Virus record (IMG/VR): IMGVR_UViG_3300044703_000050
Span: 1 to 57,725 of that record
Length of the DNA: 57,725 bases
From: a virus
Lineage: Duplodnaviria; Caudoviricetes
Strand: one strand, 5' to 3'
Shown here: positions 2,118-38,838 of the stretch, in pieces
Position numbering within the stretch: position 1 is the first letter of the stretch
How the letters are laid out: the number at the start of each line of letters is the position of its first letter
Notes under the pieces: model-generated
What the model saw: the letters and a program-made list of their open reading frames with translations, nothing else
Told to the model about the DNA's origin: nothing
Databases searched by the model: none
Position numbers and translations under genes: made by a program

Positions 2118-2370
2118 TGCCGTTGAACTTCATCGTGCCGACCGCAGCATCCTGCTTGTAGACGCCGCGCAGCACGTCGTTGCGGTTCTGCATCATCATC
2201 CGCTCGGTGAACTCGAACAGGTGCAGCTGCTCCTCGAGCGGCGCGGTGGCGATGTAGTCCGCGATCAGCTCGAGCATGGCGGCGATCGATCCCTCGATCG
2301 TCAGCGCCGGGAAGCGTTCCTCGCGCAGCTGTGCGATTCCGCAGTGCAGGCAAAATTTCTGATTGGTCAC
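2110..2370 (-). CDS. Hypothetical protein
   Basis: Overlap-coupled in the operon; N-terminal CxxC. Confidence 0.6.
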   Translation of the reverse strand: MTNQKFCLHCGIAQLREERFPALTIEGSIAAMLELIADYIATAPLEEQLHLFEFTERMMMQNRNDVLRGVYKQDAAVGTMKFNGNG

Positions 2371-7186: not shown

Positions 7187-8031
7187 GTCGAGAGTCGCTC
7201 GTTGGCGATCAATTGCACGAACGCGAACTTGTCGACCTTTCGCAGATCGATGCGATCGAGATTGTCGAGCACGTAGCGGCGCAAATCAGCCGGCTTAATG
7301 ATCCAGCGCGAGCCGCCCTGTTGCGGCGAACGCGCATCTTTGCGGCGCGCCGCCTTGATCTCGCCCTTGCCGGCCATGATGCCAACGGTCTTGCTGTCGA
7401 AGCCGACGATGACTGCAGCCTGGTGCGCCGACAGGCCTTCATTAAAACGCCGGGAAACGTCGAGGCGCTTGGCCCTCACCATGATCGCTGTCGGCGAACG
7501 GGCGAAGCCGTGTTCGCGGAAAATCTTCGAGCACTTGTTGACATCGTGAAGTGGCACCTTCCGAAGGAGCGCGGTCTCGGCCGCCGTCCAGGGCGGCGTT
7601 TTCTTGTGCGGCATCACCAGGCCAAGCTTGGTCGCTCGCTTCGTTACCCACCAGCGCGGCAGCTTGAGCTTGTCGGCGATCGCGTTGATGGCGCCGCGCT
7701 TCTTGCCATCCTGCAGCTCGTATTCGCGGCGCAGGATATCGTCGATATCGGCAGGAGGATTGATCTCAGAGAGAGAGCCGCCGCCTCTGGTGCGCGGCGC
7801 ATAGAGGCCGAGCTTGTTAGCCTGCCCATAGATAGAGCATTTGGACGTGTGCTGCGGCGGCAGATGCGCGGCGCAGGCGGCAACGCCGCCGAGCGGATAG
7901 TATTTCCGCATGATCTGGTTTTCCGCCTCGGTCCAGAAGCGGCCGGAGCGCCGACCGGCGACGTAAGGTGCAGACACTCGCGGGGCGTGCTGGCGGCCCT
8001 TCTTGAACGAAACCGGCGTGAGCACACTCAT
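7183..8031 (-). CDS. Multi-HTH DNA-binding protein
   Basis: Two WTxAE(N/T) Myb-like repeats and a C-terminal MerR/Xis-like HTH; ATG at 8031 is coupled to the ATPase stop. Confidence 0.7.
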   Translation of the reverse strand: MSVLTPVSFKKGRQHAPRVSAPYVAGRRSGRFWTEAENQIMRKYYPLGGVAACAAHLPPQHTSKCSIYGQANKLGLYAPRTRGGGSLSEINPPADIDDILRREYELQDGKKRGAINAIADKLKLPRWWVTKRATKLGLVMPHKKTPPWTAAETALLRKVPLHDVNKCSKIFREHGFARSPTAIMVRAKRLDVSRRFNEGLSAHQAAVIVGFDSKTVGIMAGKGEIKAARRKDARSPQQGGSRWIIKPADLRRYVLDNLDRIDLRKVDKFAFVQLIANERLST

Positions 8032-9302
8032 GCGAGCTCCTTGGAAATTCGGACGGCGCGTCTCTTGCCGTCGCCGGTGAACTCGACGGCGCCGTAGCGG
8101 TCGAGCAGCTCGAGCGCGGCGGCCACCTGGTCGACTCTGCGGCTGAGATGCCGGGCGAGCTCGACGACCACGGCGCCGGCGGGCGCGAGCCGCTGCAGCG
8201 CGCCCCATACTCGGCCGGCATCGGCGAAAGACGTTTCGCGGATGAAGCCGCGGATGTGGCGCAAGCCCGGCGCCAGGGCGCGCTCTTCGATCGCAGCGCG
8301 ATCGACTTCCGAGGCCGACAGCAAGGCCTCGAGATCGATGAGCTGCGCGGCGGCACCTTTCTTGAACCGGGGCGCATTGCCGATCGCTGGCGCCGCGCCG
8401 GAGTGGAACGTCTCGACCGGACCGACCCTGGCCACCACCGGACTGAATGAAAAAGCCGGGCCGACGGCGACGAACTCGCCTGGCGTCAACAGCGGAAGCC
8501 GGTCAAAGCCCTTGCTCGCGTCCCAGCCGATCATTTCCGCCGCGCGCCGGATGTCGATGTCGAGAGTGTTAAGCCCAACCATGAAGTTCTGCGCTTCGCT
8601 CACGACCGATTTGGCGATGCGCGCGACGCGCTGGGTCGCGAGGATCCCGGCCAGCCCTCGCTTGCGGCCGCGGCTCATAAGGTCGGTGAGCGCCGCGATC
8701 GAGGCCTTGCGCAGCGCCGGCGTTTCGGAATAGCCCCCGAACGGCGCGAACAGGTGCGCCTCGTCGATAGCGACCAGCGCCGAATGCCAATGCTCCCGGG
8801 GCGCGGCGACGAGCGCGGAGAAGAACGCAGTGGCGGCCTTGAGCTGATCGTCGCGGTCGAGCTCGGAGAGATCGAGCAGCAGCGAGGCGCGGTGCTCTCG
8901 CGCACGTAGCGCCGCGGTGGCCAGCGTCGCGATATCGAGGCGATGGCCGTCGAGGTGAAGCAGCTCGAGCTTCTCCCCGAGCTCGCGGAACTCGCCCTCC
9001 GGATCGACCACGATCTGCTGCACGCGGCCCGCCGTCTGCTCGAGCAGCCGTCGCAACGTCCAGGACTTGCCGGCGCCGGAAGCGCCCTGGATGAGCAGGC
9101 GCCCTTCCATCAGCTTGCGCAGGTCGAGCCCGATCTCGGCGCCGGTGTCGGCATCGCCGAGGTGGACGTCACCAGGTCGACATTTCGCGGCGACGATCGT
9201 CGGACGCGCGATGACGCCTAAAGGCTTGGCCGTGCTCGGTCCGAAGCTACGCCCGCCCGTAGCGGCGGCAAAGGCGGCTTCCGGGGAGGCGGCGCGGGTC
9301 AT
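8028..9302 (-). CDS. HerA/DUF87-like P-loop ATPase with C-terminal wHTH
   Basis: LLIQGASGAGKS, VVDPEGEF, AIDEAHLF and RGRKRGLAGILATQR are canonical HerA/FtsK-family motifs. Confidence 0.9.
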   Translation of the reverse strand: MTRAASPEAAFAAATGGRSFGPSTAKPLGVIARPTIVAAKCRPGDVHLGDADTGAEIGLDLRKLMEGRLLIQGASGAGKSWTLRRLLEQTAGRVQQIVVDPEGEFRELGEKLELLHLDGHRLDIATLATAALRAREHRASLLLDLSELDRDDQLKAATAFFSALVAAPREHWHSALVAIDEAHLFAPFGGYSETPALRKASIAALTDLMSRGRKRGLAGILATQRVARIAKSVVSEAQNFMVGLNTLDIDIRRAAEMIGWDASKGFDRLPLLTPGEFVAVGPAFSFSPVVARVGPVETFHSGAAPAIGNAPRFKKGAAAQLIDLEALLSASEVDRAAIEERALAPGLRHIRGFIRETSFADAGRVWGALQRLAPAGAVVVELARHLSRRVDQVAAALELLDRYGAVEFTGDGKRRAVRISKELA

Positions 9303-9857: not shown

Positions 9858-10204
9858 GTGATCACCGGTCCGAGATCATGAACGGGCAGGGAGCCTTTCG
9901 GCGGGTCCGACCAGCTGCGACCGAAACTTTCCAGCGTGGCGCGCCATCGCGCGATCATCGCCGGCTCGCAGTGGCTGCAGGCATCCGCCCAGGTGGGCCA
10001 ACGTCCGACGGCGCCATAGAACGCATACTGGTAGTAGAGCGACATCTGATCGTGTGGCAGCAGCGGATCGTGCTTGACGGCGCAGACCTGGCAGACGTCG
10101 GCGCGCGGCGGCAGCAGCTTAAACGGCGCGGCGCGCTGCTCGATCACTTTGCCGGTCTGCATGTCGACCGTCTGCATTTCGACCGGGACGGTTTTCATCT
10201 TCAT
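9854..10204 (-). CDS. Hypothetical Cys/His protein
   Basis: CQVCAVKHDPLLPH...RWPTWADACSHC; ATGA coupling. Confidence 0.7.
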   Translation of the reverse strand: MKMKTVPVEMQTVDMQTGKVIEQRAAPFKLLPPRADVCQVCAVKHDPLLPHDQMSLYYQYAFYGAVGRWPTWADACSHCEPAMIARWRATLESFGRSWSDPPKGSLPVHDLGPVIT

Positions 10205-11217
10205 GCGGCGGCTCCGATGCGTGGAAATTCGTTGTGCTCGCGGCCGTCGAGGAGACGGCCGGCGGCTTTCCTGCCGACGCGCCACATGGCGTGATCACCC
10301 AGATCATCCCAGCCTGCGAGCCCCTCGGTTTCGAAGGACTTGTCGCCATCCCAATCCATGCACGCATAGCGGCTCTGGTGGAGGTCGCTATCGCGCCTTT
10401 GAAGATCGTCTGTGTAATGATGGCCAGGCAGCCACTCACCCCATTGCTTGAACAAGAACGCCACGCCGGCGGCGGCACATTGATCGCGCACCGCCCGGAA
10501 CCAGTCGGGATGGGCGGGCTTCGGATCGAGCTTGCCGCTCATGCCGCCGGCGATCACCTGCGCGCGGCGGCCGAGCGCGAGGAAGTCGTCAGGAAGCTGC
10601 AACGGCCCGATCGCCGGCTCGTAGGAAATGAACACGGTGAAGCCGAGCGCGGCGAGGCGGCGGAGGTGCGGCCAGCGCTCGTCAAACTCCGGTTGTCGTT
10701 CGGCGGAAGTGCCAAGCCAGAAACGCTCGCGCGGGTTACCCCAGTCAACCAACGAGTCACAATCCATCGAATTCCGCCGCTCCGGCAGGCCTTCGAAGTA
10801 AGCCGCCATCACGTCGGCGCGCTTCGTGAGCAGCTGCCCAATGTGTTTGGAGCAGAGGATGGTGCCGACGGTCTTGTCGATCACCGCGCGCGGCCGGTCC
10901 TCGTGAAACAGATCGCTCATGTCGCCGACGAAGATTGTCGACGGCTGTCCTCGGCCGAGCTTCGGCTCCTTGGCGCCGCGCCAGGTCAACGGCCAGCTCC
11001 ACACCGGATGATCATCCGGCGCTGCCGTCAGCTTGCCGTTGAACACCGGGCGGCCCTTCTGCAGCGTCGTGGTGCCTGCATAGAGCGGATGGTTGGCGAG
11101 CCGCGTGCCGGCGAGCTGCTGGGCGTAGCAGGGAATGCAGCCGGGCGACTTGATCGAGCAGCCGCCGATCGGGTTCCAGGTGGCGTCGGTCCATTCGATC
11201 GGGGTCGGATAGCCCAT
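10201..11217 (-). CDS. DUF5131 / phage Gp37-Gp68 family (radical-SAM-like) protein
   Basis: IEWTDATWNPIGGCSIKSPGCIPCYA, IFVGDMSDLFH, LLTKR, FLFKQWGEW. Confidence 0.92.
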   Translation of the reverse strand: MGYPTPIEWTDATWNPIGGCSIKSPGCIPCYAQQLAGTRLANHPLYAGTTTLQKGRPVFNGKLTAAPDDHPVWSWPLTWRGAKEPKLGRGQPSTIFVGDMSDLFHEDRPRAVIDKTVGTILCSKHIGQLLTKRADVMAAYFEGLPERRNSMDCDSLVDWGNPRERFWLGTSAERQPEFDERWPHLRRLAALGFTVFISYEPAIGPLQLPDDFLALGRRAQVIAGGMSGKLDPKPAHPDWFRAVRDQCAAAGVAFLFKQWGEWLPGHHYTDDLQRRDSDLHQSRYACMDWDGDKSFETEGLAGWDDLGDHAMWRVGRKAAGRLLDGREHNEFPRIGAAA

Positions 11218-25528: not shown

Positions 25529-26120
25529 AGCGTTCCCGGCGCGCCATGCGCGTTTCGTCGCCGAGTACCTGATCGACTTCAACGGCGCCAAGGCCGCGGT
25601 GCGGGCGGGCTATTCGGCGCGGCGGGCGAAGCAGACGGCGTCGGAGCTTTTGGCGCGCGACGAGATCGCGGCGGCGATCGCCGAGGGCCAGCAGCAGCTC
25701 GCGGCGCGGGCCACGGTCACGGTGGACGAGGTGGTGGCGGCGCTCACGACCGTACTGCGCGCCAACGTCCTGGACTACATGCGGGTCGGGCCCGAGGGCG
25801 AACCAATCGCCGATTTCAGCGAGATGACGCGCGAGCAGGCCGCGGCGGTGTCGGAGGTCACGGTCGAGGACTTTGTCGACGGCCGCGGTGACGATGCCCG
25901 CGACGTCAAGCGGGTGCGCTTCAAGCTGCACGACAAGCTGTCGGCGGCCGACAAACTGATGCGCCACCTCGGTGGCTACGCGCCGGTCCGCATCGGCAAC
26001 GCGCCAGGCGAGACGTTTAAGACCAGTCAGGCGGCGCATGAATTTACCGACGCGGAGCTCGTCGCTATCGCCCTCGGCGGCCGCGGCGGAGCTGCTCCGG
26101 AGGAGACGGGCGCGCGATAG
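25509..26120 (+). CDS. terS: Terminase small subunit
   Basis: RFVAEYLIDFNGAKAAVRAGYS...KLHDKLSAADKLMRHLG. Confidence 0.92.
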   Translation: MTESKAKAFPARHARFVAEYLIDFNGAKAAVRAGYSARRAKQTASELLARDEIAAAIAEGQQQLAARATVTVDEVVAALTTVLRANVLDYMRVGPEGEPIADFSEMTREQAAAVSEVTVEDFVDGRGDDARDVKRVRFKLHDKLSAADKLMRHLGGYAPVRIGNAPGETFKTSQAAHEFTDAELVAIALGGRGGAAPEETGAR

Positions 26121-27600
26121 CCTGATCGGCTTCGCCAATTCGGTAGAGATCCCGGGCAAACCCGTTGCCGACGATGAGGATGCCTGGCTGTTCAAGCCGG
26201 TGGAGACCACGGTCGCCGATCACCACCGGCTGATCATGCAGCACGCAGAGACGATCGCCTCGACGCCGTACGGTCGCGGCATGTTCTTCCTGCCGCCGGG
26301 CTCGGCCAAGTCCACTTACGGCTCGGTGCTGTTGCCGGCCTACAACATGGGGCGCTTCCCCGGCAACCGCCTGATCCTGACCACGTACGGCTCCGACCTC
26401 TCGCGCAAGCACGGCCGCCGGGCCCGCCAGATCGTCCGCTCACCGGCCTATGGCGCGATCTTCAACACCGGCCTGTCGCCGGACTCGAGCGCCGCCGACG
26501 AGTGGGCGCTGACCAACGGCTCCGAATACATGGCCGGCGGGATCCTTTCGGGGATCACCGGCAACCGCGCCAACGGCATCATCATCGATGATCCGGTGAA
26601 AGGCCGCGACGAGGCGGAGTCGGACGTCGTGCGCAAGCGCACGCTCGAGGCCTACGAGGACGACATCAAGACGCGGCTGCTGCCGGGCGGCTGGATGCTG
26701 CTCATTCAGACGCGCTGGCACGAGAACGACCTCGCCGGCTCGATCCTGCCGGAGAGCTGGAAGGGCGAGAGCGGGCTCATCCGGTGCCGCGACGGCTTCG
26801 ACTGGCTGGTGCTGTCGATCCCGGCCAAGGCCGAACGCGCCGACGATCCGCTCGGCCGCAAGCCCGGCGAGTATCTCTGGCCGGAATGGTTCGACCGCAA
26901 GCACTGGTCGCAGTTCGAGAGCAACGCGCGGACCTGGTCGGCGCTTTACCAGCAGCGGCCGGCGCCGGAGAGCGGCAACTATTTCCGGGCCGAGTGGCTG
27001 CGGCCTTACACGGACGCCCCGGCACGCGCGACTCTCACCGTCTACGGCGCCTCTGATTACGCCGTCACCGAAAAGGGCGGCGACTACACCGTGCACATCG
27101 TGGTCGGGGTCGATCCGGACAACCGGATGTACCTCCTCGACCTCTGGCGCCGGCAGACGGCGTCGGACGAATGGGTCGAGGCCTGGTGCGACCTGGTGCT
27201 GAAATGGAACCCGCTCGGCTGGGCCGAGGAGAAGGGCCAGATCAAGGCCGGCGTCGGCCCGTTCCGCGACAGCCGCGCGCTCACACGCAAGGCCTATTGC
27301 GCGGTGACAGCGTTTCCGACGCGTGGCGACAAGGCGGTGCGCGCACAATCGATCCGCGGCCGCATGGCACAGCTCGGGCTCTACGTGCCGACGAGCGCGC
27401 CCTGGGCGGCCGACCTGAAGACCGAGCTGATGAGCTTCCCGAACGGGCGGCATGACGACCAGACCGACACGCTCGGGCTGATCGGGCAACTCCTAGACGT
27501 GTTGATGCCCGGACCGAAGCCGAAGACGGCCGAAACCAACAAGCGCAGCGACTACGGCCCGGCGCAACGGTCGGACGAGAACAGCCTGCTGACACTTTAA
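26038..27600 (+). CDS. terL: Terminase large subunit (start uncertain)
   Basis: PPGSAKSTY Walker A, GIIIDDPVKG Walker B, QTRWHENDL, ASDYA nuclease Asp, FPNGRHDDQTD. Confidence 0.95.
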   Translation: MNLPTRSSSLSPSAAAAELLRRRRARDSLIGFANSVEIPGKPVADDEDAWLFKPVETTVADHHRLIMQHAETIASTPYGRGMFFLPPGSAKSTYGSVLLPAYNMGRFPGNRLILTTYGSDLSRKHGRRARQIVRSPAYGAIFNTGLSPDSSAADEWALTNGSEYMAGGILSGITGNRANGIIIDDPVKGRDEAESDVVRKRTLEAYEDDIKTRLLPGGWMLLIQTRWHENDLAGSILPESWKGESGLIRCRDGFDWLVLSIPAKAERADDPLGRKPGEYLWPEWFDRKHWSQFESNARTWSALYQQRPAPESGNYFRAEWLRPYTDAPARATLTVYGASDYAVTEKGGDYTVHIVVGVDPDNRMYLLDLWRRQTASDEWVEAWCDLVLKWNPLGWAEEKGQIKAGVGPFRDSRALTRKAYCAVTAFPTRGDKAVRAQSIRGRMAQLGLYVPTSAPWAADLKTELMSFPNGRHDDQTDTLGLIGQLLDVLMPGPKPKTAETNKRSDYGPAQRSDENSLLTL

Positions 27601-27987: not shown

Positions 27988-29925
27988 ATGCAGCTCGAGG
28001 TCGCCGCGTCCGAAGGCCGCAGCGTCGCGCGCCGCAAAAGCAGCGCCGACGAGAACCGATCGCAGTTCCTCCCGGTCGAGACTCTGCGCCGCCAATACCT
28101 CGACTATCTCACCTGCAAGGTCGCCGAGATCGAGGAGGCGAAGGAGGCGCGGCGCTATTACCACGGCGCCCACTACACCCCCGACGAAATCCGCGTCCTG
28201 CGCGCGCGCCGGCAGCCGCCGGTGGTGTGGAATCGCATCGCCCGCAAAATCAACGGCATCGTCGGCGTGGTGCAGAAGCAGCGCCGCGACCCGAAAGCCT
28301 TCCCGACCAAGCCGAAGGGCGAGGCCGGCGCCGAGATCGCGACCCAGACCATCCGCACGGTGCTCGACGGCAACGACTGGGAGACCCGCGACGAGTTTTG
28401 CCTGCGCCAGGCGGCGACCGAGGGCATCGGCGGCATCGAGCTGCGTCTGGTCGCGGGCGACCAGGGCGACCCCGACATCGAAATGTGGGAGGTGTTCGGC
28501 GACGACTTCTTCTACCAGCCCACTTCCGTCCGCTTCGACTTTTCAGACGCCCGCTACAAAGGAATCGCCAAGTGGGTCGACGTCGACGAGGCGGTCGAGC
28601 TCTTTCCCGACCGGGAAGAACTGATCCGCGGGCTGATCGAGTCCGGCTCCGACCTCACCACCAACGCCGACCGCGAATACAAGTGGATCAACACCACCAC
28701 GAAGCGCGTGCGGCTGATCGAGCACTGGTATAAGCACCGCGGCGTGTGGTGTTGGGCCTTCTACATCTCCAATCAGCTGCTGGAGGAGGGTGTCTCCCCG
28801 TTCAAGGACGAGCGCCGGCGCACCATCGCGCGCTTCATCATGTTCCGCGCCGCGGTCGACCAGGACGGCGACACCTACGGCTTTGTGCGCAACTTCAAGG
28901 GCCCGCAGGACGAGCTCAATCAGAGCCGCTCGAAGAGCAATCATGTCGCCAATTCCCGCCGGCTGATCGCCGACAAGGGGGCGGTTGACGACGTCGAAAC
29001 CGCGCGGCGGGAATGGGCGCGGCCTGACGGCTACATCGAGAAGAATCCCGGCAAGGAGATCGCGCCGGATAACACTACCGCCGATCTCGCCGCGCAGCTG
29101 CAGCGCGCGCAGACCGCGGCCGACGAGATCGAGAACTTCGCCAATACCAACATCGCCAACATGACCGACGGCGCGGTCGGCAACCTGTCGGGCGTCGCCA
29201 TCAACCTCCTGACCCAGCCAGGCCTCGCCGAGCTCGGGCCTTTCATCAAGGCCTATCGCGGCTGGAAGCTGCGGGTCTATCGCGCGGTCTTCAATCTTGC
29301 CCAGCAGTATTGGACGTCGGAGCGCTGGGTGCGGGTGACCGACGACGAGGACGTCGCTCATTTCATCCAGATCAACGGGCTCGACCTCGACGACTACGGC
29401 CGGCCGGCGATGGTCAATTACCTCGGCGCCCTCGACGTCGACATCAAGCTCGACGAAGGCCCCGACGAAGTGACGCAAATGCAGGATACCTACGACGTGA
29501 TCAAAAATGATCCGGCGGTGCCTGCCCAGGTCAAGATCGCGGTGGCGCCGATCCAGGGCAGCGTCAAGAAGCGCATCCTCGCCATGCTGCAGCCGCCGGT
29601 CGATCCGGCGCAGGCGATCATGAAGCGGCTCGCGCTCGAAGGCGCCTCCGCAGAGAACGAGAGCGAGCGGGCCCGCGCCGAGGAACGCCGCGCGCGTGCG
29701 GTGAAGGATGCCGCCGGTGCGGCCGCGCTGGTCGTCAAGGCCGGGCTCAACGGCGCCGAGGCCTACAAGGCCTCGATCGAAGCCGGGCAGGGCGGCGACA
29801 ACGGGCCGGGCGCTATCCAAGGCTTGCCCGACCAGGCACCGGGGCCAGGCGGTGCGCCCACTGCAGCGCCGATGCCGATGATCGCTCCGCCGGCGCCGCA
29901 GTTCCCGTTACCGTTCGGACCGTAG
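27988..29925 (+). CDS. Portal protein (P22-like)
   Basis: 645 aa after terL; YYHGAHYT, RRQPPVVWNRI, GPQDELN, SGVAIN, DVDIKLDEGP. Confidence 0.92.
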   Translation: MQLEVAASEGRSVARRKSSADENRSQFLPVETLRRQYLDYLTCKVAEIEEAKEARRYYHGAHYTPDEIRVLRARRQPPVVWNRIARKINGIVGVVQKQRRDPKAFPTKPKGEAGAEIATQTIRTVLDGNDWETRDEFCLRQAATEGIGGIELRLVAGDQGDPDIEMWEVFGDDFFYQPTSVRFDFSDARYKGIAKWVDVDEAVELFPDREELIRGLIESGSDLTTNADREYKWINTTTKRVRLIEHWYKHRGVWCWAFYISNQLLEEGVSPFKDERRRTIARFIMFRAAVDQDGDTYGFVRNFKGPQDELNQSRSKSNHVANSRRLIADKGAVDDVETARREWARPDGYIEKNPGKEIAPDNTTADLAAQLQRAQTAADEIENFANTNIANMTDGAVGNLSGVAINLLTQPGLAELGPFIKAYRGWKLRVYRAVFNLAQQYWTSERWVRVTDDEDVAHFIQINGLDLDDYGRPAMVNYLGALDVDIKLDEGPDEVTQMQDTYDVIKNDPAVPAQVKIAVAPIQGSVKKRILAMLQPPVDPAQAIMKRLALEGASAENESERARAEERRARAVKDAAGAAALVVKAGLNGAEAYKASIEAGQGGDNGPGAIQGLPDQAPGPGGAPTAAPMPMIAPPAPQFPLPFGP

Positions 29926-32416: not shown

Positions 32417-33562
32417 ATGGCCGCCACCGCTACGAGTTCCAACAACAAGCTGATCAAGTTCAGCACTGACATCACGCGGGAATTCATCCGCGAGAACCCG
32501 CTGTCGCCCTACATGGGCCCGGGGATGACCAACATCATCCGGGTCATCAACGACCTCAAGCCCGGCGGCGAGCAGATCAACGTCCCGCTGATCGCGCGTC
32601 TGAAGAACACCGGCGTCGGCTCCGGCACGTTGCGCGGCAACGAAGAGGCGATCGACAACTATGGCTGCCGCGGCTGGATCGACTGGGCGCGCAACGCCAT
32701 CACGGTCACCAAGGCCGAGCAGCACAAGTCCTCGATCGACTTGTGGGCGCAGAACAAGCCGCTCCTGGCCGACTGGGGCAAGGAGCTGCAGCTGTTCGAG
32801 ATGGTGGATGCGTTCTACGCGCTGCCGTCGGAAACGGCGCCCGCCGGCCTCGGCTCCGCCGCCGGCCAGCGCGTCAACGGCATCCTGTTCGATGCAGCGA
32901 CCGCAGGCCAGCGCAACACCTGGGTCACCGACAACGCCGATCGCGTGCTGTTCGGCAATGCCGGCTCCAACCTCGTCGCGGGCAACTTCGCCTCGAGCTG
33001 CGCCAACGTCACCAACGCGATGACGCTGTCGGCCGCCATCATCACCCGCATCAAGCGGGCGGCGCGCAAGGCCAATCCGCGCATCAAGCCCTACAAGACC
33101 AAGAACGGCCGCGAATACTACGTGTTCCTGGTCGGCCAGGAGCAGTTCCGCGACTGCCAGAACGACACCACCATCATCACTGCCAACACCCAGGCGCGGG
33201 CGCGTGAAGGCGATGCGATCAACAAGAACCCGCTCTTCCAGGATGGTGACCTCCTCTACAACGGCGTCATCATCCGCGAGAACGTCGAGCAGTCGATCCG
33301 GCTGCCCACGTTCTACAAGACCGCGGGCTCGGGCAACGTGCAGATCGCGCCCGGGTTCTTCTGCGGACAGTCGGCGCTGGCGTGGCTCTGGGGCCAGGCT
33401 GCGTTGCCGACCTTCCTCAAGGAGGATGATTACGGCTTCATCCGCGGCACCGGCGTCGAGCTCGCCTACGGCATCATGAAGATCGCCAAGAAGAACCCGG
33501 CCGGCAACCTCAAGGAGTGGGGCGTGTTCACTTGGTTCGGCGCGGCGATCGCCGACACTTAA
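32417..33562 (+). CDS. Major capsid protein (DUF4043 / N4-gp56-like)
   Basis: PYMG, LRGNEEAI, KNPLFQDGDLLYNGVIIRE, DDYGF; size and position fit. Confidence 0.9.
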   Translation: MAATATSSNNKLIKFSTDITREFIRENPLSPYMGPGMTNIIRVINDLKPGGEQINVPLIARLKNTGVGSGTLRGNEEAIDNYGCRGWIDWARNAITVTKAEQHKSSIDLWAQNKPLLADWGKELQLFEMVDAFYALPSETAPAGLGSAAGQRVNGILFDAATAGQRNTWVTDNADRVLFGNAGSNLVAGNFASSCANVTNAMTLSAAIITRIKRAARKANPRIKPYKTKNGREYYVFLVGQEQFRDCQNDTTIITANTQARAREGDAINKNPLFQDGDLLYNGVIIRENVEQSIRLPTFYKTAGSGNVQIAPGFFCGQSALAWLWGQAALPTFLKEDDYGFIRGTGVELAYGIMKIAKKNPAGNLKEWGVFTWFGAAIADT

Positions 33563-33614: not shown

Positions 33615-33654
33615 CCCGCTTCAAATCCTGATCATCGGCCCAAGGAGGCCAACC

Positions 33655-34137
33655 ATGAAACGCATCCTCGCGGCTCTTGCCGCATTGTTCCTCGTCGGGA
33701 CGAGTGCCGCCTTGGCGATCTCGCCCCTCATCGGCAATGCCACGCCGGCGACCCGGCAGCTGCCGATGCAGCTGGTTCATACCTACCGCGCCACGGTCAA
33801 CTTCAACGATCCGACGATCTCGTCTGCGATCCAGTTCGGCTCGCTGCCGGCTGGCTCTTCCATCGTCGCCGTGCAAGTCGAGATCGTCACGGCGTTCAAC
33901 GCCGCCACCACCAACGTGCTGACCTTCGGCACCACCACCACGGCGACCGAGCTGGTCAACGCCGGCGACCTCAACGAGGCCGCGACCGGCGTGACCAGCG
34001 TCACGCGCGGGCTCGGCCAGTCGCTCACTGCCTCGGCCGATACTGGGCTCTACGCCAAGTACACGCAGACCGGCACGGCGGCGACGGCCGGCAAGGCCAT
34101 CGTCACCATCCAGTACATCCCCAACAACGATCAGTAA
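33655..34137 (+). CDS. Capsid cement/decoration-like protein with signal-peptide-like N-terminus
   Basis: GSLPAGSSIV...VTAFNAATTNVLTFG...ATAGKAIVTIQY; N-terminus MKRILAALAALFLVGTSAALA. Confidence 0.8.
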   Translation: MKRILAALAALFLVGTSAALAISPLIGNATPATRQLPMQLVHTYRATVNFNDPTISSAIQFGSLPAGSSIVAVQVEIVTAFNAATTNVLTFGTTTTATELVNAGDLNEAATGVTSVTRGLGQSLTASADTGLYAKYTQTGTAATAGKAIVTIQYIPNNDQ

Positions 34138-34199: not shown

Positions 34200-34775
34200 A
34201 TGCTGAAGAAACTTCTGGCGGCCGCGGCCGCGCTCGCCGTGACCGCCGCGATCGCCGCGGCGGCTACATTCGCGATCGACGGCGGGCAGCCGGTGCTGCC
34301 GGGCAATGCGGGCCCGACCGTATTCCACTCCGGCGGCGCCACTCCGGTCGCCGTTTCAAGCGGCACCGATGCGACCGCCGTCAACACCGAAACCTACATC
34401 GTCGAGGTGTTCGTGCCGGCGAACGCGACGCTCACCGGCGTGTCGGTCCTGCATCTGGCGACCTCGACCGGCAACGTGCAGTTCTCGCTCGCCGATTCCG
34501 CCGGCGTGCCGATCGCTGCGGCGGTTACGGCCTCGACCGCGGCCACCGGCTCGGCCGCCTACCAGAAGGTGCCGTTCGCGGTCGCGTATGCCGCCAAGGG
34601 CCCCGCGAAATACTTCATCCTGATGCAGAACAGCGGCAGCAACCATTACCGGGCGCACGCGCTCGGCAATTTCGGGGCGGCCAAGAAGACCGGCGAGACC
34701 TACGGCACGTTCACCACGGTGACGCCGCCGACCACGTTCACCGCCGATCTCGGCCCGATCGCCGACGTCTACTGA
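34200..34775 (+). CDS. Putative virion protein with signal-peptide-like N-terminus
   Basis: MLKKLLAAAAALAVTAAIAAAA followed by a beta-rich body; AAGGAGG RBS. Confidence 0.75.
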   Translation: MLKKLLAAAAALAVTAAIAAAATFAIDGGQPVLPGNAGPTVFHSGGATPVAVSSGTDATAVNTETYIVEVFVPANATLTGVSVLHLATSTGNVQFSLADSAGVPIAAAVTASTAATGSAAYQKVPFAVAYAAKGPAKYFILMQNSGSNHYRAHALGNFGAAKKTGETYGTFTTVTPPTTFTADLGPIADVY

Positions 34776-35309: not shown

Positions 35310-36263
35310 ATGGCCAAGACCCGCGCCGATCTGGCCAGCGATGCGCTGAGCAATCTCGGCATCGTCATCCTGGCGGACGGCGCACCCACCCGCACCCGCG
35401 CCGACTGGGTCAATGAGACCCTGTACCTCCTTGGGGTTATCCGGCAGACGGATACGTCGGCAGTGCGCACGCGTTCCGAGCTTGTCAACAACGTCGCCTT
35501 CATCCTCGGCCCGGGCGAGGTCGGACAGGCGCTCAATGCCGACGACTATGCGGCGATCGATATGCGCTTCGACACCGTCATCGGCGACCTCAACGCTCGT
35601 GCGATCGCGACCATCGGGAATGCCAACGCCATTCCGGGCGCCTGGTTCGACGCGCTATCCGCGATCGTCGCCAACGTCTGCAAGGAGAAATACGGCGTCA
35701 CCGGCGACGAGGCGACGAAGCTGCAGGCCGAGGCCGCGCTAGCCGAGGGCAAGCTCAAGACGCTGACCCGGACTGGGCTCGTCGATGAGGTCTTGCCCTC
35801 CATCGTCGGCGACCTCAACGCTCGCTCCATCGCCACCGTTGCCGACCTCGGCGCCATTCCGGGCGCCTGGTTACCCTCACTTGCCGACATCGCGGCCGAG
35901 TTCGTCAAGGGCCGCTTTGGCGTGTCGCCGGAACGCTCGCTGGAACTGACCGCGCGCGCCCAGGCGGCCGAGCGCAAGCTCAAGGCCATGACGCGCGCCT
36001 ACCTTGTCGACCGCAACATCGACGCAATCCTTGCCGATCTCGCGGCGCGCGACATCGTCTATCTGGTCGATCAGAGCGACATTCCCGACGAGTGGTATTT
36101 TCATCTCGCCGCCATCGTGGCCGATCGCTGCAAGGGTAAGTTCGAGCTCGATCCCTTGACGCTGCAGCGGGTGTCGACCGACGGCGCGCAGGCCCTGATG
36201 GATCTGCGCGAATTGACCCGCGGACGGCCGAGCTATCTGCCGCAACAGACGAGCTATTTCTGA
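35310..36263 (+). CDS. Head-tail adaptor (P22 gp4 position), internally triplicated
   Basis: Directly before the gp10-like gene; (K/R)TRxxL/W..AL..LG three times, then DL.AR.I...IP..W three times; terminal GRPSY...YF. Confidence 0.75.
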   Translation: MAKTRADLASDALSNLGIVILADGAPTRTRADWVNETLYLLGVIRQTDTSAVRTRSELVNNVAFILGPGEVGQALNADDYAAIDMRFDTVIGDLNARAIATIGNANAIPGAWFDALSAIVANVCKEKYGVTGDEATKLQAEAALAEGKLKTLTRTGLVDEVLPSIVGDLNARSIATVADLGAIPGAWLPSLADIAAEFVKGRFGVSPERSLELTARAQAAERKLKAMTRAYLVDRNIDAILADLAARDIVYLVDQSDIPDEWYFHLAAIVADRCKGKFELDPLTLQRVSTDGAQALMDLRELTRGRPSYLPQQTSYF

Positions 36264-37690
36264 TGCCGACGGTCGATATCCCGTTCCCGCTGTCGTCGGC
36301 GCCCGGCCGCAGTCCGGGTGAGGGTGCCGGCCGGCTGATCAACTGTTATGCCGAGGCGCTGGGGCCAGAGGCGATCTCGCCGGCGGTGCGGCGGCGGGTG
36401 GCCGGGCTGACCGCGTTTTCGTCGCCCGGCGGGGCGGTTGCGGCCTGCCGCGGCTTCCTCGAGGTCAATGGCCTGCTCTATGCCGTGATCGGGCGCACCA
36501 TGTACGCCATCGCGTCCGATGGCGGCTTCACCATCGTCGGCGTCGTCGCGGGCACGAAAAAAGTGTTCATGGCGCGCAACAACAAGAAGCCCAACCCCGA
36601 CAAGGTGCTGGTGACCGAAAACGGCGCCTTTAGCTTCGATACCACGATCGTCGCGTTCGCCGACCCGAATCTGCCGGTTCCGTGCGGGGTCTGCTTCCAG
36701 GATGGCTTTTTCTTCTTCCCGGTCGGCGACGGCCGCTGCTTTGCCACCGGTGTCAACGACGTCACGGTCAACGCGCTGACATTCTCGACCGCGGAATCGA
36801 AACCCGATGGTCTCGTCACCGCGATTCCGTTCAACAACCAGCTCCTGCTGTTCGGGTCCTACTCGCTGGAATTCTGGTCGAACACGTCCAACGCATTCCC
36901 GGCTTTCCCATACACGCGCTCGGCGGCAGTCTCGCGTGGTCTCGTCGCGTCCACCGCGATCGCTGGTCATCAGGACGGCTTCGGCGGTTCGGCGCTGATC
37001 TGGGTGGCCGACGACAACACAGTGGTGAAATTGGACGGCTACACGCCGGTGAAAATCTCTGCGCCCGATCTCGATAACCTGATCGAGCTCGTCGCCGACA
37101 AGACGACGCTCGAGGCCTGCGTCTACATCGCCGGTGGCCATCCGAAATGGGTGCTCTCGTCGAATGACTGGACTTGGGAGTTTGATCTCAACACACAAAA
37201 GTGGAACGAGCGGGCGAGCTATGGCTTGGCGCGCTGGCGGGCGTCGCAGGCGGTTTACGCCTTCGGCAAATGGCTCGCTGGCGACACTCAGACCGGTTCC
37301 ATATTCCAGATCGACGCTGCCCAGCAAAAAGAGGGCACCAACGCGCTGATCTATCGTCTTGAGAGCGGACCGGCGCAGAACTTCCCTAATCGCACGCGGG
37401 TGGCGCGCGCGGATTTCGACCTGGCGAGCGGCGTCGGCGACGCAACTGGCGCGACGGTGCCGGAAACCGATCCGGTCGCCGAGGTGAGCTGGTCGGACGA
37501 CGGCGGCGCCACCTGGTCGCTGCCAGTGCAGCGGCCGCTCGGCCAGCAGGGTCGCTACCGTCAGCGCATTACCGTCACCGGCAGCGGCAGCTCCGGTCCG
37601 CGCGGCCGGCGCTGGCGGATCGTCATCAGTGATCCGGCCTATGCCGCGATCACGCTTGGACGCCAGTCCACCGAATTGCGGGATCACTGA
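36263..37690 (+). CDS. Packaged-DNA stabilisation / tail hub protein (P22 gp10-like)
   Basis: RLINCYAE, STAESKPD, SLEFW, VSWSDDGGATWS, ISDP. Confidence 0.88.
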   Translation: MPTVDIPFPLSSAPGRSPGEGAGRLINCYAEALGPEAISPAVRRRVAGLTAFSSPGGAVAACRGFLEVNGLLYAVIGRTMYAIASDGGFTIVGVVAGTKKVFMARNNKKPNPDKVLVTENGAFSFDTTIVAFADPNLPVPCGVCFQDGFFFFPVGDGRCFATGVNDVTVNALTFSTAESKPDGLVTAIPFNNQLLLFGSYSLEFWSNTSNAFPAFPYTRSAAVSRGLVASTAIAGHQDGFGGSALIWVADDNTVVKLDGYTPVKISAPDLDNLIELVADKTTLEACVYIAGGHPKWVLSSNDWTWEFDLNTQKWNERASYGLARWRASQAVYAFGKWLAGDTQTGSIFQIDAAQQKEGTNALIYRLESGPAQNFPNRTRVARADFDLASGVGDATGATVPETDPVAEVSWSDDGGATWSLPVQRPLGQQGRYRQRITVTGSGSSGPRGRRWRIVISDPAYAAITLGRQSTELRDH

Positions 37691-37935
37691 TGACGACGGC
37701 CACAGGCAAGCCGCTGCCGGATCCTGGATTGCCCTGGAGCAATCCCGCGACCGGTCGGCCGACGCCGCCGTTCGCCGAATATCTGCAGGCGCTCGAGCTG
37801 ATCGCAAAACTTTTGAACGCCGGCATGGTCGGCCCGCTGGTCGATGCGGCGAACGATGCGGCCGCGGCGGCCGCCGGCGTTCAGATCAACGGCCTCTACC
37901 GTACCGCCAACGCCGTCCAGATCCGACTGGTTTAG
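37690..37935 (+). CDS. Small tail-associated protein
   Basis: TGRPTPPF...AANDAAAAAAGVQINGLYR. Confidence 0.7.
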   Translation: MTTATGKPLPDPGLPWSNPATGRPTPPFAEYLQALELIAKLLNAGMVGPLVDAANDAAAAAAGVQINGLYRTANAVQIRLV

Positions 37936-37947
37936 GAGTACGCCGCC

Positions 37948-38838
37948 ATGGGCATCTTCGACGGCATCTTCAACAATAAGCCGGCCGAGCGGGCGGCGGC
38001 CGCGCAGAGGGCTGGGCTCGAAGCCGGCTATGGCATGGCGCAGCCGTTGCTGCAGCAGGGCGCCGATGCGCTAAAGACGAATTTCGCGGCCGGGCTTGAC
38101 CCGTTCCTGAAAAACTTCGCCACTGCCAATCAGGGCCAACAGACCTATGCCGATGCTGTCGGCGCCAACGGTCAGGAGGGCTTCGACCGCGCGACCACGA
38201 ATTTCCGCGCCGATCCGGGTTTTAAGTTCGCGCTCGATACCGGCAACGAGAATGTGCTGCGCAACGCCGCGCGCACCGGCAACCTCGCGAGCGGCGGGAC
38301 CGACGTCGATCTGATGAAATTTGGCCAGGGTCTCGCCGATCAGCAGTACGGCAATTACGTGCAACGGCTGCAGCCGTTCATCGGCGCGTCGGGTGCGGCT
38401 GCTGGCGGCATCGGCGGGCTCTATGCCGGGCTCGGAACGCAGCTCAACGGCAACTACGGTACCCAGGCCAATCTCGCTTATGGCACGCAGACCGGCATCG
38501 GGAATGCGAACGCGTCGGCCGAGCTCAATCAGGGGAACGTAAACAAGAACATCCTCGGCGCCGGGCAGCAAGGCATGGAGCTCGCCGCAAAGTTCCTGCC
38601 ATTCCTGTTCTCCGACGAGCGCGTCAAGGAAGACATCGAGCCCATAGGCGAGCTCTACGACGGTCAGCCGATCTATCGTTACAAGTACATCGGCGATGAC
38701 CCCACCACTCATATTGGTCTGCTGGCGCAGGAAGTCGAAGAGCTCGAGCCCGACGCGGTCGCTGAGTTCGGTGGCATCAAGGCCGTCGATTACAAGCGCG
38801 CCACCAACTTTGCCGCCGGATTGGCGGAGTTCGTCTGA
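37948..38838 (+). CDS. DNA ejection (pilot) protein with C-terminal peptidase-S74-like domain
   Basis: FRADPGFKF, Gly/Ala-rich body, then SDERVKEDI...IYRYKY...GLLAQEVE...VDY. Confidence 0.8.
   Translation: MGIFDGIFNNKPAERAAAAQRAGLEAGYGMAQPLLQQGADALKTNFAAGLDPFLKNFATANQGQQTYADAVGANGQEGFDRATTNFRADPGFKFALDTGNENVLRNAARTGNLASGGTDVDLMKFGQGLADQQYGNYVQRLQPFIGASGAAAGGIGGLYAGLGTQLNGNYGTQANLAYGTQTGIGNANASAELNQGNVNKNILGAGQQGMELAAKFLPFLFSDERVKEDIEPIGELYDGQPIYRYKYIGDDPTTHIGLLAQEVEELEPDAVAEFGGIKAVDYKRATNFAAGLAEFV

Follow-up and report, generated by a model that had tools for sequence, protein, structure and literature searches.

The head-tail adaptor encoded in a 57.7-kb virus record carries three copies of an N-terminal helix (A), followed by three copies of a three-helix body (B) and a single C-terminal tail. 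We refer to the whole stretch of DNA analysed, 57,725 nt, as the window, and to this 317-aa protein as the window protein. It belongs to an undescribed adaptor family with 1 to 8 units per chain, in which multi-unit chains follow two topologies. We read the gene product as the adaptor of a P22/Pam5-type phage with a short tail and consider, with moderate confidence, that each subunit folds into a nested column of three storeys. At present, the proteins are annotated as 'hypothetical', have no Pfam match and are placed in a PHROG without assigned function, and no paper describing repeated adaptor units was found in open-access PMC and bioRxiv.

Repeat architecture and gene context

Motifs of the A helix lie at aa 3, 28 and 53, with a period of exactly 25, and motifs of the B body at aa 92, 167 and 242, with a period of exactly 75; the tail motif lies at aa 305. 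With unit HMMs derived from single-unit relatives, B was located at aa 81–154, 156–229 and 231–304 and the tail at aa 305–317; A lies at aa 2, 27 and 52 (Table 1). The third A helix is followed by a G-Q...D-D-Y loop that corresponds to the A-to-B joint of single-unit adaptors, and the tail is likewise common to single-unit adaptors (consensus of 114 single units). The phrog_29314 profile, which spans 137 positions, also matches Pam5_08 (E 1.2e-9) and the adaptors of two related loci, L002 (E 1.6e-17) and L003 (E 1e-13).

Table 1 Features of the adaptor gene and of further head and tail genes in the window
Feature	Position	Strand	Description
Portal protein	27988..29925	+	phrog_156 E 1e-88
Major capsid protein	32417..33562	+	PF13252 E 3.1e-37; phrog_334 E 1.4e-61
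Whole adaptor ORF	35310..36263	+	317 aa + stop; A1-A2-A3-B1-B2-B3-tail; phrog_29314 E 1.8e-17, 3 stretches
A1 (aa 1–27), helix 1 copy 1 + linker	35310..35390	+	model helix 5–15; beta-bridge residue aa 3; A-HMM 21 bits
A2 (aa 28–52), helix 1 copy 2 + linker	35391..35465	+	model helix 30–41; bridge residue aa 28; A-HMM 24 bits
A3 (aa 53–80), helix 1 copy 3 + loop	35466..35549	+	model helix 55–66; A-HMM 16 bits
B1 (aa 81–155), helices 2–4 of innermost unit	35550..35774	+	B-HMM 86 bits
B2 (aa 156–230), middle body	35775..35999	+	B-HMM 71 bits
B3 (aa 231–304), last body	36000..36221	+	B-HMM 78 bits
C-terminal tail (aa 305–317), G-R-P-S-Y...Y-F	36222..36260	+	T-HMM 9 bits
Tail hub / head closure Hc3, P22 gp10-like, 475 aa	36263..37690	+	phrog_578 E 1.8e-90

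We determined the significance of the repeats by comparing local BLOSUM62 alignment scores with those obtained in 1000 shuffles. B1/B2 scores 169 compared to 25 ± 4.7 in shuffles (z 30.6), B1/B3 scores 95 (z 18.4) and B2/B3 scores 80 (z 13.9), while A1/A2 and A2/A3 score 39 and 40, respectively (z 7.9 for both); none of the 1000 shuffles matches any of these five scores. The A1/A3 pair is weaker (score 25, z 2.5) and is matched by 27 of 1000 shuffles. Control alignments of A against B remain at chance level (z 0.5, −0.4 and −1.3). Self-BLASTP of the protein returned the diagonal only, with no internal repeat. At the DNA level, no tandem array was detected and only 70–88% patches of 17–44 nt are left. 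Since likeness in the DNA is reduced to short patches, the repeats are old and no assembly artefact. Motif positions, HMM placement and the shuffle-calibrated alignments thus confirm that the A-A-A-B-B-B repeats with their single tail are real, as an earlier sequence-only reading of the window had proposed.

The ORF opens with an ATG located 1 nt beyond the stop of the preceding ORF and closes with a TGA that overlaps by 1 nt with the ATG of the hub gene, which is translationally coupled to it. The hub shares 41% identity with the 'head completion protein' of Pam5; weak Kelch matches were also seen in the hub. The adaptor gene is situated within the head-tail joining block, after the major capsid protein gene and directly upstream of the phrog_578 hub, and the same capsid/adaptor/hub order is found in Pam5 and in IMG/VR locus L003, where a 2-unit form precedes phrog_578. 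In locus L002, the one frame taken 3′ of the adaptor, a choice that is uncertain, gave no hub PHROG match. The portal encoded in the window is the presumed partner of the adaptor tail. Several large tail proteins whose role is not assigned are encoded downstream in the window.

Predicted fold and packing of the units

We calculated an AlphaFold2 monomer model from a 29-sequence alignment (pLDDT 85.6, pTM 0.69) and searched it with VIA-align against 48,161 PDB chains. Phage adaptor or neck proteins occupy every one of the top 35 rows, and rows 1–22 all fall on model residues of about 46–156, corresponding to A3+B1. This segment matches Sf6 gp7 (7sfs_N) with Z 12.3 and an rmsd of 2.4 Å over 102 residues, A3 lying within the aligned stretch 49–153, and it further matches P22 gp4 (4v4k_k, Z 10.7) and the Pam1 adaptor (7eep_M, Z 10.3). 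In the model, A3+B1 forms the canonical four-helix adaptor fold, and the inner unit of the 5-unit relative P0002 yields the same matches. A Foldseek search of the whole model against the PDB retrieved no structure at E ≤ 0.001; unrelated helical enzymes headed the list. By fold and by gene position, the window protein belongs to the adaptor superfamily (P22 gp4 / Sf6 gp7 / T7 gp11), so that the identity assigned by the sequence-only reading was correct.

For the outer units, three neck proteins were aligned to A1 and B3 (9gb5_I, Z 6.2; 9jlf_b, Z 5.1; 8hdr_a, Z 4.5). The alignments extend over model ranges 3–315, 1–316 and 2–311 with only 78–90 residues aligned, and Z values of 4.5–6.2 are in the range that VIA-align itself calls common for helical models. 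The model contains six single bridge residues through which every A start is bridged to a B: aa 3, 28 and 53 lie at the onset of the three A units, and aa 108, 183 and 258 immediately precede the I-P of the B bodies. The model fits a hairpin stack A1·B3 / A2·B2 / A3·B1, where the A2–B2 pairing is suggested by elimination together with the bridge-residue pattern; the packing of A2 on B2 and of A1 on B3 and the end-to-end stacking of the B bodies are features of the model. It is hence compatible with the nested pairing anticipated from the order of the repeats. Model helix 133–171 crosses the B1/B2 boundary, the last helix of B1 running into the first helix of B2, and helices 207–228 and 231–246 nearly bridge the boundary between B2 and B3. 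The linkers between the A helices, 11–13 residues long, are modelled with the lowest confidence (pLDDT 72–73). In the model of the 5-unit relative, the extra units are poor (pLDDT 40–57) and A3 is paired with B5, apparently a copy of the 3-unit core that dominates its alignment; VIA-align matches to this model were confined to the inner unit.

In a normal unit, helix A at the N terminus is followed by a body B of three helices and by a short C-terminal arm that reaches into the portal. We propose that the window protein elaborates this plan as follows: the chain would run through the three A helices, turn at the A3–B1 loop and return via the three B bodies, with one A packed per B (A3 on B1, A2 on B2 and A1 on B3). 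Such a hairpin path would bring the chain termini and the single portal-binding arm to one end of the column. By analogy with known adaptors, a dodecamer of such columns would sit on the portal with the tail inserted between portal subunits, and the 13-aa tail may represent the portal-binding arm as described for Sf6 gp7 in the available text of PMC9728967. A1·B3 and the tail would adjoin the portal, A3·B1 would contact the tail hub, and the channel from portal to hub would be about three times as long as with a single unit. The height of a storey is estimated at ~30 Å from model helix lengths. The middle storeys would act as spacers whose number evolves. That A and B occur in equal numbers is most simply accounted for if each storey requires one of each.

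Unit number may set the length of the phage neck. We consider it possible, if somewhat short of probable, that storey number constitutes an evolvable, quantised neck ruler, where each A+B pair adds one 12-fold ring of ~30 Å. In such a ruler, the first and last storeys would be fixed interfaces, and the middle ones would be quickly gained and lost; n ranges from 2 to 7 inside a single clade, and tandem members reach 8. The nested path, with all A running down and all B running back up, would be a second solution to building multiple storeys, one that has probably arisen more than once. If this holds true, the nested path would be a rare natural case of a repeat whose halves are kept in separate arrays, their number being held equal by the fold. 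As chains with 5 and 7 units exist, we rejected an arrangement in which n units in 12/n chains would close one 12-unit ring.

The present analysis is compatible with more than one orientation of the column with respect to the tail. The extra storeys could point away from the 12-mer ring, forming arms or a collar for docking of fibres, spikes or capsid and leaving the channel at its usual length. Sf6 tailspike N-termini also contact the adaptor in the available text of PMC9728967, the fibre dock of T7-like phages is borne by the adaptor in the available text of bioRxiv 10.64898/2026.02.16.706137, and the large tail proteins of unassigned role downstream in the window are compatible with such docking. 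In the published descriptions at hand, however, the bundle helices of solved adaptors line the channel roughly parallel to its axis, and the units of the model are stacked along those channel-lining helices, which favours an axial stack; moreover, the first B, presumed to be distal, is kept as one clade, as expected if it binds the hub. We consider outward projection unlikely. The nested order would also permit a swap in which A1 and A2 dock onto B bodies of an adjacent subunit and lock the ring. P22 gp4 is monomeric and oligomerizes only on the portal (available text of PMC9728967), the long A linkers have the lowest model confidence, and packing within and between chains is indistinguishable in a monomer prediction. 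The monomer model is nevertheless confident with intra-chain packing, and we regard the swap as decidedly improbable. Hardly credible is the notion that the additional units are tolerated relics devoid of a structural role, or that the long ORF is artefactual: the reading frame is uninterrupted and coupled in translation to the adjacent genes, open frames persist in 30 nested and 15 tandem relatives together with conservation of the units, the repeats are old in the DNA and yet conserved in the protein, and the ESM Atlas holds clusters of 64–79 members for 315-, 213- and 215-aa forms. The axial three-storey column is the reading we retain.

Unit numbers, topologies and evolution of the family

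Single units are the norm of the family. Among 162 relatives in hand, 114 have lengths of 110–139 aa, and 158 classified proteins divide into 114 single-unit, 29 nested and 15 tandem forms; one further 7-unit protein beyond these raises the nested class to 30. The sequence-only reading had taken single A–B bundles of less than half this length to be usual, and the length distribution agrees, 317-aa forms not being the norm. Exhaustive HMMER searches retrieved many single-unit relatives, where a word-index search for shorter relatives gave none. A search of viral contigs with a 5-sequence alignment found two related loci; the search with the window protein alone found nothing, nor did the search of genome contigs. 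With tblastn, P0001, P0021, P0025 and P0023 gave no match at E ≤ 1e-3 in 50,697 GenBank phage records, and no cultured phage with a multi-unit adaptor was detected among these records with the four queries.

We defined the nested class by (i) gaps between B bodies of ≤16 aa, (ii) all A ahead of all B, (iii) equal numbers of A and B and (iv) one tail. Observed B–B gaps in this class are 1–5 aa. The window protein has its A helices before abutting B bodies, as many A as B and one tail. Nested AnBn proteins, the window protein included, cover n = 2–7 with matched A and B counts (30 proteins), and tandem (AB)n proteins cover n = 2–8 (15 proteins). The claim of a triplication therefore stands with regard to the three copies, while a one-off event does not, given the nested series; similarly, the order AAABBB rather than ABABAB holds for the window protein, but ordinary ABAB forms are present in the family as well. 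In nested proteins, the N-terminal length increases by 27 aa per B (r 0.977) and the total length by 102 aa per unit (r 0.99), and n A units are found in 30 of 30. At a strict threshold of 5 bits, A and B counts are equal in 22 of 29 nested proteins, six being under-counted and the window protein showing one extra A match. The series from n = 1 to 7 provides a system for asking how repeats split into two arrays keep equal numbers.

Across all 19 proteins of the main clade, the first B forms one clade (support 96/94) and so does the last B (support 100/98), to which B3 of the window protein is orthologous; within the main clade, variation is confined to the middle units. Mean identity is highest for the last B (0.58), followed by middle (0.45) and first B (0.41). 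Proteins of different n can have near-identical last units, for instance pairs with n = 6 and 2 or with n = 4 and 2.

The sequence-only reading took the order AAABBB to imply Russian-doll insertion, that is, repeated insertion of a whole A–B copy into the A|B junction, as opposed to separate growth of the two arrays. Nested topology alone does not imply this, and as a whole the unit data do not support the claim. In favour of insertion, every nested protein has as many A as B, the youngest A and B pairs within a protein correlate in age (Spearman 0.72, p 7e-6, 30 proteins), the most similar A and B pairs are nested partners in P0023, P0006, P0003, P0001 and P0007, and the nested assignment ranks 1/12 in the closest subset. 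However, middle A units resemble A_first (14 of 16) but the unit tree places 16 of 16 middle B units on the side of B_first, so that they are not partners derived from one parent unit; the most similar pairs are not nested partners in 6 proteins and are off by one in 4. In the P0022 group, relics of the tail and of the loop remain at every B–B junction and the periods are different (about 35/87), which points to tandem duplication inside the B part. Either pattern could be mimicked by context constraints. The affinities of the middle units and the junction relics speak for arrays of A and of B that expanded separately, and we consider whole-unit insertion unlikely.

In sequence-based tests for nested partners, the nested assignment in the across-protein unit correlation ranks 1/12 in a 6-protein subset, 11/24 and 438/576 as proteins are added, and Mantel tests reveal no special link for A_first with B_last (r 0.32) compared to A_first with B_first (r 0.36). 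Between proteins, an MI-based coupling score told true partners from foreign ones in 72% of cases, but it remained at chance (0.49–0.54) in a within-protein positive control on tandem proteins, and was therefore dropped before use on nested proteins. Sequence tests thus gave no independent support for nested partners.

Comparison with known adaptors

In all matched structures, the helical core of the adaptor occurs once per chain. With a range of 1–8 units and two chain topologies, podophages would be able to tune the length of the neck or its docking capacity by repeat number, loosely comparable to the tape-measure proteins that set tail length in long-tailed phages.

Sf6 gp7 and P22 gp4 (7sfs, 4v4k) share with A3+B1 of the window protein the four-helix core, a short C-terminal extension past the last helix and the position of the gene between the coat gene and that of a gp10/gp8-type beta-propeller hub; the roles of arm and hub in Sf6 are given in the available text of PMC9728967. 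They differ in having one unit per chain, where the window protein has three in nested order, and in the length of the arm, which is about 33 aa after the core in the built Sf6 gp7 model compared to 13 aa here. At the sequence level the relation is distant: PF11650 P22_Tail-4 has no match to the window protein at E ≤ 1, none of the 114 single-unit relatives matches it at E ≤ 0.01, and P22 gp4 chains are reached by the family profile only at E 0.22. ESM Atlas features showed a PF11650 cluster at 0.93, a lead only.

A long adaptor is already present in public databases. Searched with the whole model, BFVD gave one entry at E ≤ 0.001, A0A8S5PNU3, 'Head to tail adaptor [Podoviridae sp. ct8dV2]' of 691 aa (E 3.6e-4, prob 1.0, 314 columns), with a TM-score by query of only 0.41.

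A relative with an annotated function is the adaptor of Pam5, a cultured phage that is short-tailed according to the available text of PMC9382816. Pam5_08 (Pseudanabaena phage, ON014757, 117 aa) matches the same phrog_29314, is annotated as adaptor, lies directly upstream of the homologous hub and ends in the same C-terminal tail motif. It consists of a single A–B–tail unit, and its BLASTP match to the window protein is weak (E 2e-5), extending over B3 and the tail.

The tandem (AB)n members P0038 (n = 3), P0021 (n = 7) and P0025 (n = 8), all metagenomic, are built from the same A and B units with one terminal tail at about 105 aa per unit. Here, each B is followed by a linker of 24–36 aa that holds a full A helix and loop, whereas in the nested class the B bodies abut and every A helix is placed in front.

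Repeat order and copy number

The window protein is a three-storey member of an undescribed podophage adaptor family that varies in copy number and occurs in nested and tandem topologies, where a storey is one N-terminal helix (A) packed on one three-helix body (B) and n is the number of A+B units per chain. Its gene is tightly packed on both sides, with the ATG 1 nt after the stop of the upstream ORF and the TGA overlapping the ATG of the next gene. The A motifs lie at aa 3, 28 and 53 with a period of exactly 25, the B motifs at aa 92, 167 and 242 with a period of exactly 75, and the motif of the C-terminal tail at aa 305. We compared local alignment scores with 1000 shuffles: z amounts to 30.6 for B1/B2, 18.4 for B1/B3, 13.9 for B2/B3 and 7.9 for both A1/A2 and A2/A3 (scores reached by 0/1000 shuffles in each case), whereas A1/A3 is weaker (z 2.5, 27/1000) and the A versus B controls stay at chance level (z 0.5, −0.4 and −1.3). 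The order A-A-A-B-B-B plus tail, proposed in the sequence-only reading, is confirmed by these values. The repeats are old, since their similarity at the DNA level is confined to short patches of 70–88% and Tandem Repeats Finder found no array in the adaptor DNA.

We performed an exhaustive HMMER search of 1.84 billion representatives, which returned 196 proteins at E ≤ 1e-3; the best 150 of these 196, together with word-index matches, give 162 relatives. HMMs for A, B and tail were built from an alignment of 114 proteins of 110–139 aa and used to read the architecture of each longer relative. The counts below exclude four of the 162: P0014 is truncated at its N-terminus, P0122 carries a 36-aa extension on its single unit, P0128 has one unit too divergent for scoring, and P0140 has a foreign-looking N-terminus. 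In this last protein (184 aa), 99 residues unlike the A helix precede a single B, and the entry could be a chimera or a misassembly.

The relatives are cluster representatives found with a three-unit query, so that the following proportions are biased to multi-unit forms: (i) single A-B-tail proteins (n = 1) make up 114/158, with a median of 119 aa; (ii) nested proteins, in which all A precede abutting B (gaps of 1–5 aa, or 13–15 aa in one subgroup), make up 29/158; and (iii) ordinary tandem (AB)n proteins, in which a linker of 24–36 aa after each B carries a full A helix and loop, make up 15/158. Copy numbers are n = 2 (14 proteins), 3 (8, window protein included), 4 (4), 5 (2) and 6 (1) in the nested class and n = 2 (2), 3 (4), 4 (4), 5 (1), 7 (3) and 8 (1) in the tandem class. 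A search for longer proteins added one more nested protein of 730 aa with seven A and seven B. For each B unit, nested proteins gain 27 aa in the N-terminal region (r 0.977), and their total length rises by 102 aa per unit (r 0.99). At a strict cut-off of 5 bits, reached by no match in 240 shuffled sequences, A and B counts agree in 22/29 nested proteins, six are under-counted and the window protein shows one spurious extra A match; when the n best non-overlapping A matches are taken, n A units are located in 30/30 nested proteins, as is also visible in the N-terminal sequences.

Single A-B units are therefore the norm, as had been expected, and the 317-aa form is not. The three nested copies claimed for it are real, but this form is not unique and represents one member of a nested series with n = 2–7. 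For forms of 315, 213 and 215 aa, ESM Atlas has clusters of 64, 79 and 78 viral members, respectively. By tblastn, we found no cultured phage with a multi-unit adaptor, and literature listings from open-access PMC and bioRxiv yielded no description of repeated adaptor units.

Adaptor fold and predicted chain path

A Pfam search of the window protein gave no match, PF11650 included. Its PHROGs match is phrog_29314 ("unknown function"), with E 1.8e-17 across three stretches; against P22 gp4, the family profile attains E 0.22 at best. We aligned its AlphaFold2 model (mean pLDDT 85.6, pTM 0.69; 29-sequence alignment) to 48,161 PDB chains with VIA-align. Phage adaptors and neck proteins fill the top 35 rows, and rows 1–22 all fall on model residues ~46–156, that is A3+B1, with Sf6 gp7 (Z 12.3, 2.4 Å over 102 residues), LME-1 (Z 11.3), Carin-1 (Z 11.2), P-SCSP1u (Z 11.1), P22 gp4 (Z 10.7) and the Pam1 adaptor (Z 10.3) among the matches. 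Foldseek with the whole elongated model gave no match; a BFVD search returned, as the sole match at E ≤ 0.001, an uncultured-podovirus protein of 691 aa named "Head to tail adaptor". Fold and gene position, not sequence, thus bear out the earlier identification, and the protein is very probably a head-to-tail adaptor.

In the model, the last helix of B1 and the first helix of B2 form one helix (133–171) and the B2/B3 junction has only a two-residue break (207–228, 231–246); the B bodies are therefore stacked end to end. DSSP reports six lone bridge residues: one begins each A copy (aa 3, 28 and 53), and one immediately precedes the I-P motif in each B copy (aa 108, 183 and 258), a pattern expected if each A docked on one B in like manner. 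The modelled A3-B1 is a contiguous canonical unit. Three neck proteins (9gb5_I, Z 6.2; 9jlf_b, Z 5.1; 8hdr_a, Z 4.5; all modest in VIA-align) align to the model ranges 3–315, 1–316 and 2–311 with only 78–90 aligned residues and therefore cover A1 plus B3 only. A2 would then pair with B2 by elimination and in view of the short A2-A3 linker. The model is compatible with the nested intra-chain pairing suggested earlier (A3-B1, A2-B2, A1-B3), which we consider likely from these tool outputs on the model rather than from a contact list. The model of a five-unit relative is poor in the extra units and appears to copy the three-unit core of its alignment.

From adaptor descriptions in parts of PMC9728967 and bioRxiv 10.64898/2026.02.16.706137, we infer a four-helix up-down unit in which A would begin and B would finish at one and the same end, from which the C-terminal arm would leave for the portal. 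The A helices would descend storey by storey and the B bodies climb back, a hairpin path needing almost no B-B linker, with which the small observed gaps agree. Each new unit of the tandem class would have to begin one storey away from the previous end; this offset fits the Gly/Thr/Ser-rich linkers of ~10 residues ahead of each A helix. The matched numbers of A and B would follow from a need for one of each per storey.

We calculated a maximum-likelihood tree of 54 B units from nested proteins of the main clade (19 proteins; 10 more were too divergent for inclusion). The last B falls into one clade in 19/19 (support 100/98) and the first B into another in 19/19 (96/94), and the middle B lies on the first-B side in 16/16. 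The last B is the most conserved, with a mean pairwise identity of 0.58, above those of first (0.41) and middle (0.45) units. A tree of last B plus tail (158 proteins; 87 columns only, mostly unresolved) contains a main nested clade (19 rows, support 98) that mixes n = 2 to 6, with the n = 6 protein and an n = 4 protein each sister to an n = 2 protein (support 96 and 99, respectively). Nested proteins occur in ~7 spots and tandem proteins in 2, but a single origin would still be compatible with the starred branches. We read the storeys at the two ends as conserved interfaces and those between them as fast-turnover spacers; if Sf6 is a guide, binding to the portal (via the tail) and to the hub (far end) would fall to the end storeys. 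Whether extra storeys lengthen the neck axially is, in our estimate, evenly balanced.

Origin of the nested order

The order had been attributed to insertion of whole units into one another, A1[A2[A3-B1]B2]B3. This origin is not confirmed and appears unlikely. The middle A is closer to the first than to the last A (14/16 over the helix, 16/16 over 24 residues) and the middle B groups with the first B, whereas nesting would place the first A and the first B in different storeys. All such A/B unit comparisons may be biased by context constraints, because non-last A and non-last B each have a like neighbour. Three relatives with other periods (P0022, P0027 and P0030; ~35 and ~87 aa) retain a tail-motif relic and a pre-B loop relic at each B-B junction, which looks like tandem duplication within the B part.

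One correlation favours coupled growth of the two arrays, as insertion of whole units would have it: identities of the most similar A pair and the most similar B pair rise together across 30 nested proteins (Spearman 0.72, p 7e-6). These pairs are, however, nested partners in 5 proteins only, off by one in 4 and non-partners in 6, the remaining 15/30 having two units and one possible pair. When we asked which A travels with which B, the nested assignment ranked 1/12 in the six closest proteins (r 0.69 versus 0.21 for parallel) and, with more proteins, 11/24 and then 438/576. Mantel correlations give the expected link between last A and first B (r 0.52) and no special link between first A and last B (r 0.32 versus 0.36 for first A and first B); the covariation score for A-B partners failed its positive control. 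In our estimate, separate expansion of the A and B arrays, with selection for equal numbers, is thus more likely than whole-unit insertion.

In one nested n = 2 protein (P0127, 253 aa), the A helices are 89% identical and the B bodies only 42%; its A array alone may have undergone a recent duplication or gene conversion.

Genomic surroundings and likeness to Pam5

CheckV rates the 57,725-base virus record as complete, and the adaptor lies in a podophage morphogenesis block.

Features of the virus record and their positions
Feature	Position	Strand	Description
704-aa protein	2367-4481	-	weak terminase-like PHROG match
HerA/DUF87-type ATPase	8028-9302	-	E 9.6e-10
DUF5131 protein	10201-11217	-	E 1.4e-57; phrog_2045
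Large terminase	25972-27600		
Portal	27988-29925		
Major capsid protein	32417-33562		
Small ORF	33652-34137	+	hydrophobic, signal-peptide-like N-terminus
Small ORF	34200-34775	+	hydrophobic, signal-peptide-like N-terminus
Adaptor ORF	35310-36263	+	open frame, ATG start, TGA stop, 317 aa
Tail hub, P22 gp10 type	36263-37690	+	475 aa; phrog_578 "head closure Hc3", E 1.8e-90
81-aa ORF	37690-37935		
S74 protein	37948-38838	+	296 aa; C-terminal Peptidase_S74 intramolecular-chaperone (endosialidase-chaperone) domain, E 1.9e-10

Most of the left 25 kb lacks a family match; the terminase-like match in this arm is additional to the true large terminase, and the DUF5131 gene lies in an early or replication region. 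The 81-aa ORF separates the hub gene from that of the S74 protein, a possible needle or fibre that would be auto-cleaved once folded; this protein also matches tail-fibre and DNA-ejection PHROGs. The capsid gene and the adaptor block flank the two small ORFs, which have no Pfam match. They could encode cement or decoration proteins, or else products targeted to the membrane, which would be unusual at this location; PHROGs gives a weak "Rz-like spanin" match for the first (E 2.8e-5).

The hub shows weak Kelch and BNR repeat matches (best E 3.6e-4), which fit the six-bladed beta-propeller of the Sf6 hub described in part of PMC9728967. Its closest match among 50,697 GenBank phages (41% identity) is that of Pam5, a short-tailed cyanophage according to a portion of PMC9382816. 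A "cement protein" of Pam5 occupies the position of the two small ORFs, and the gene directly upstream of its hub is annotated "adaptor protein", as the window adaptor adjoins the hub; the Pam5 adaptor has 117 aa compared with 317 aa in the window, and both belong to phrog_29314.
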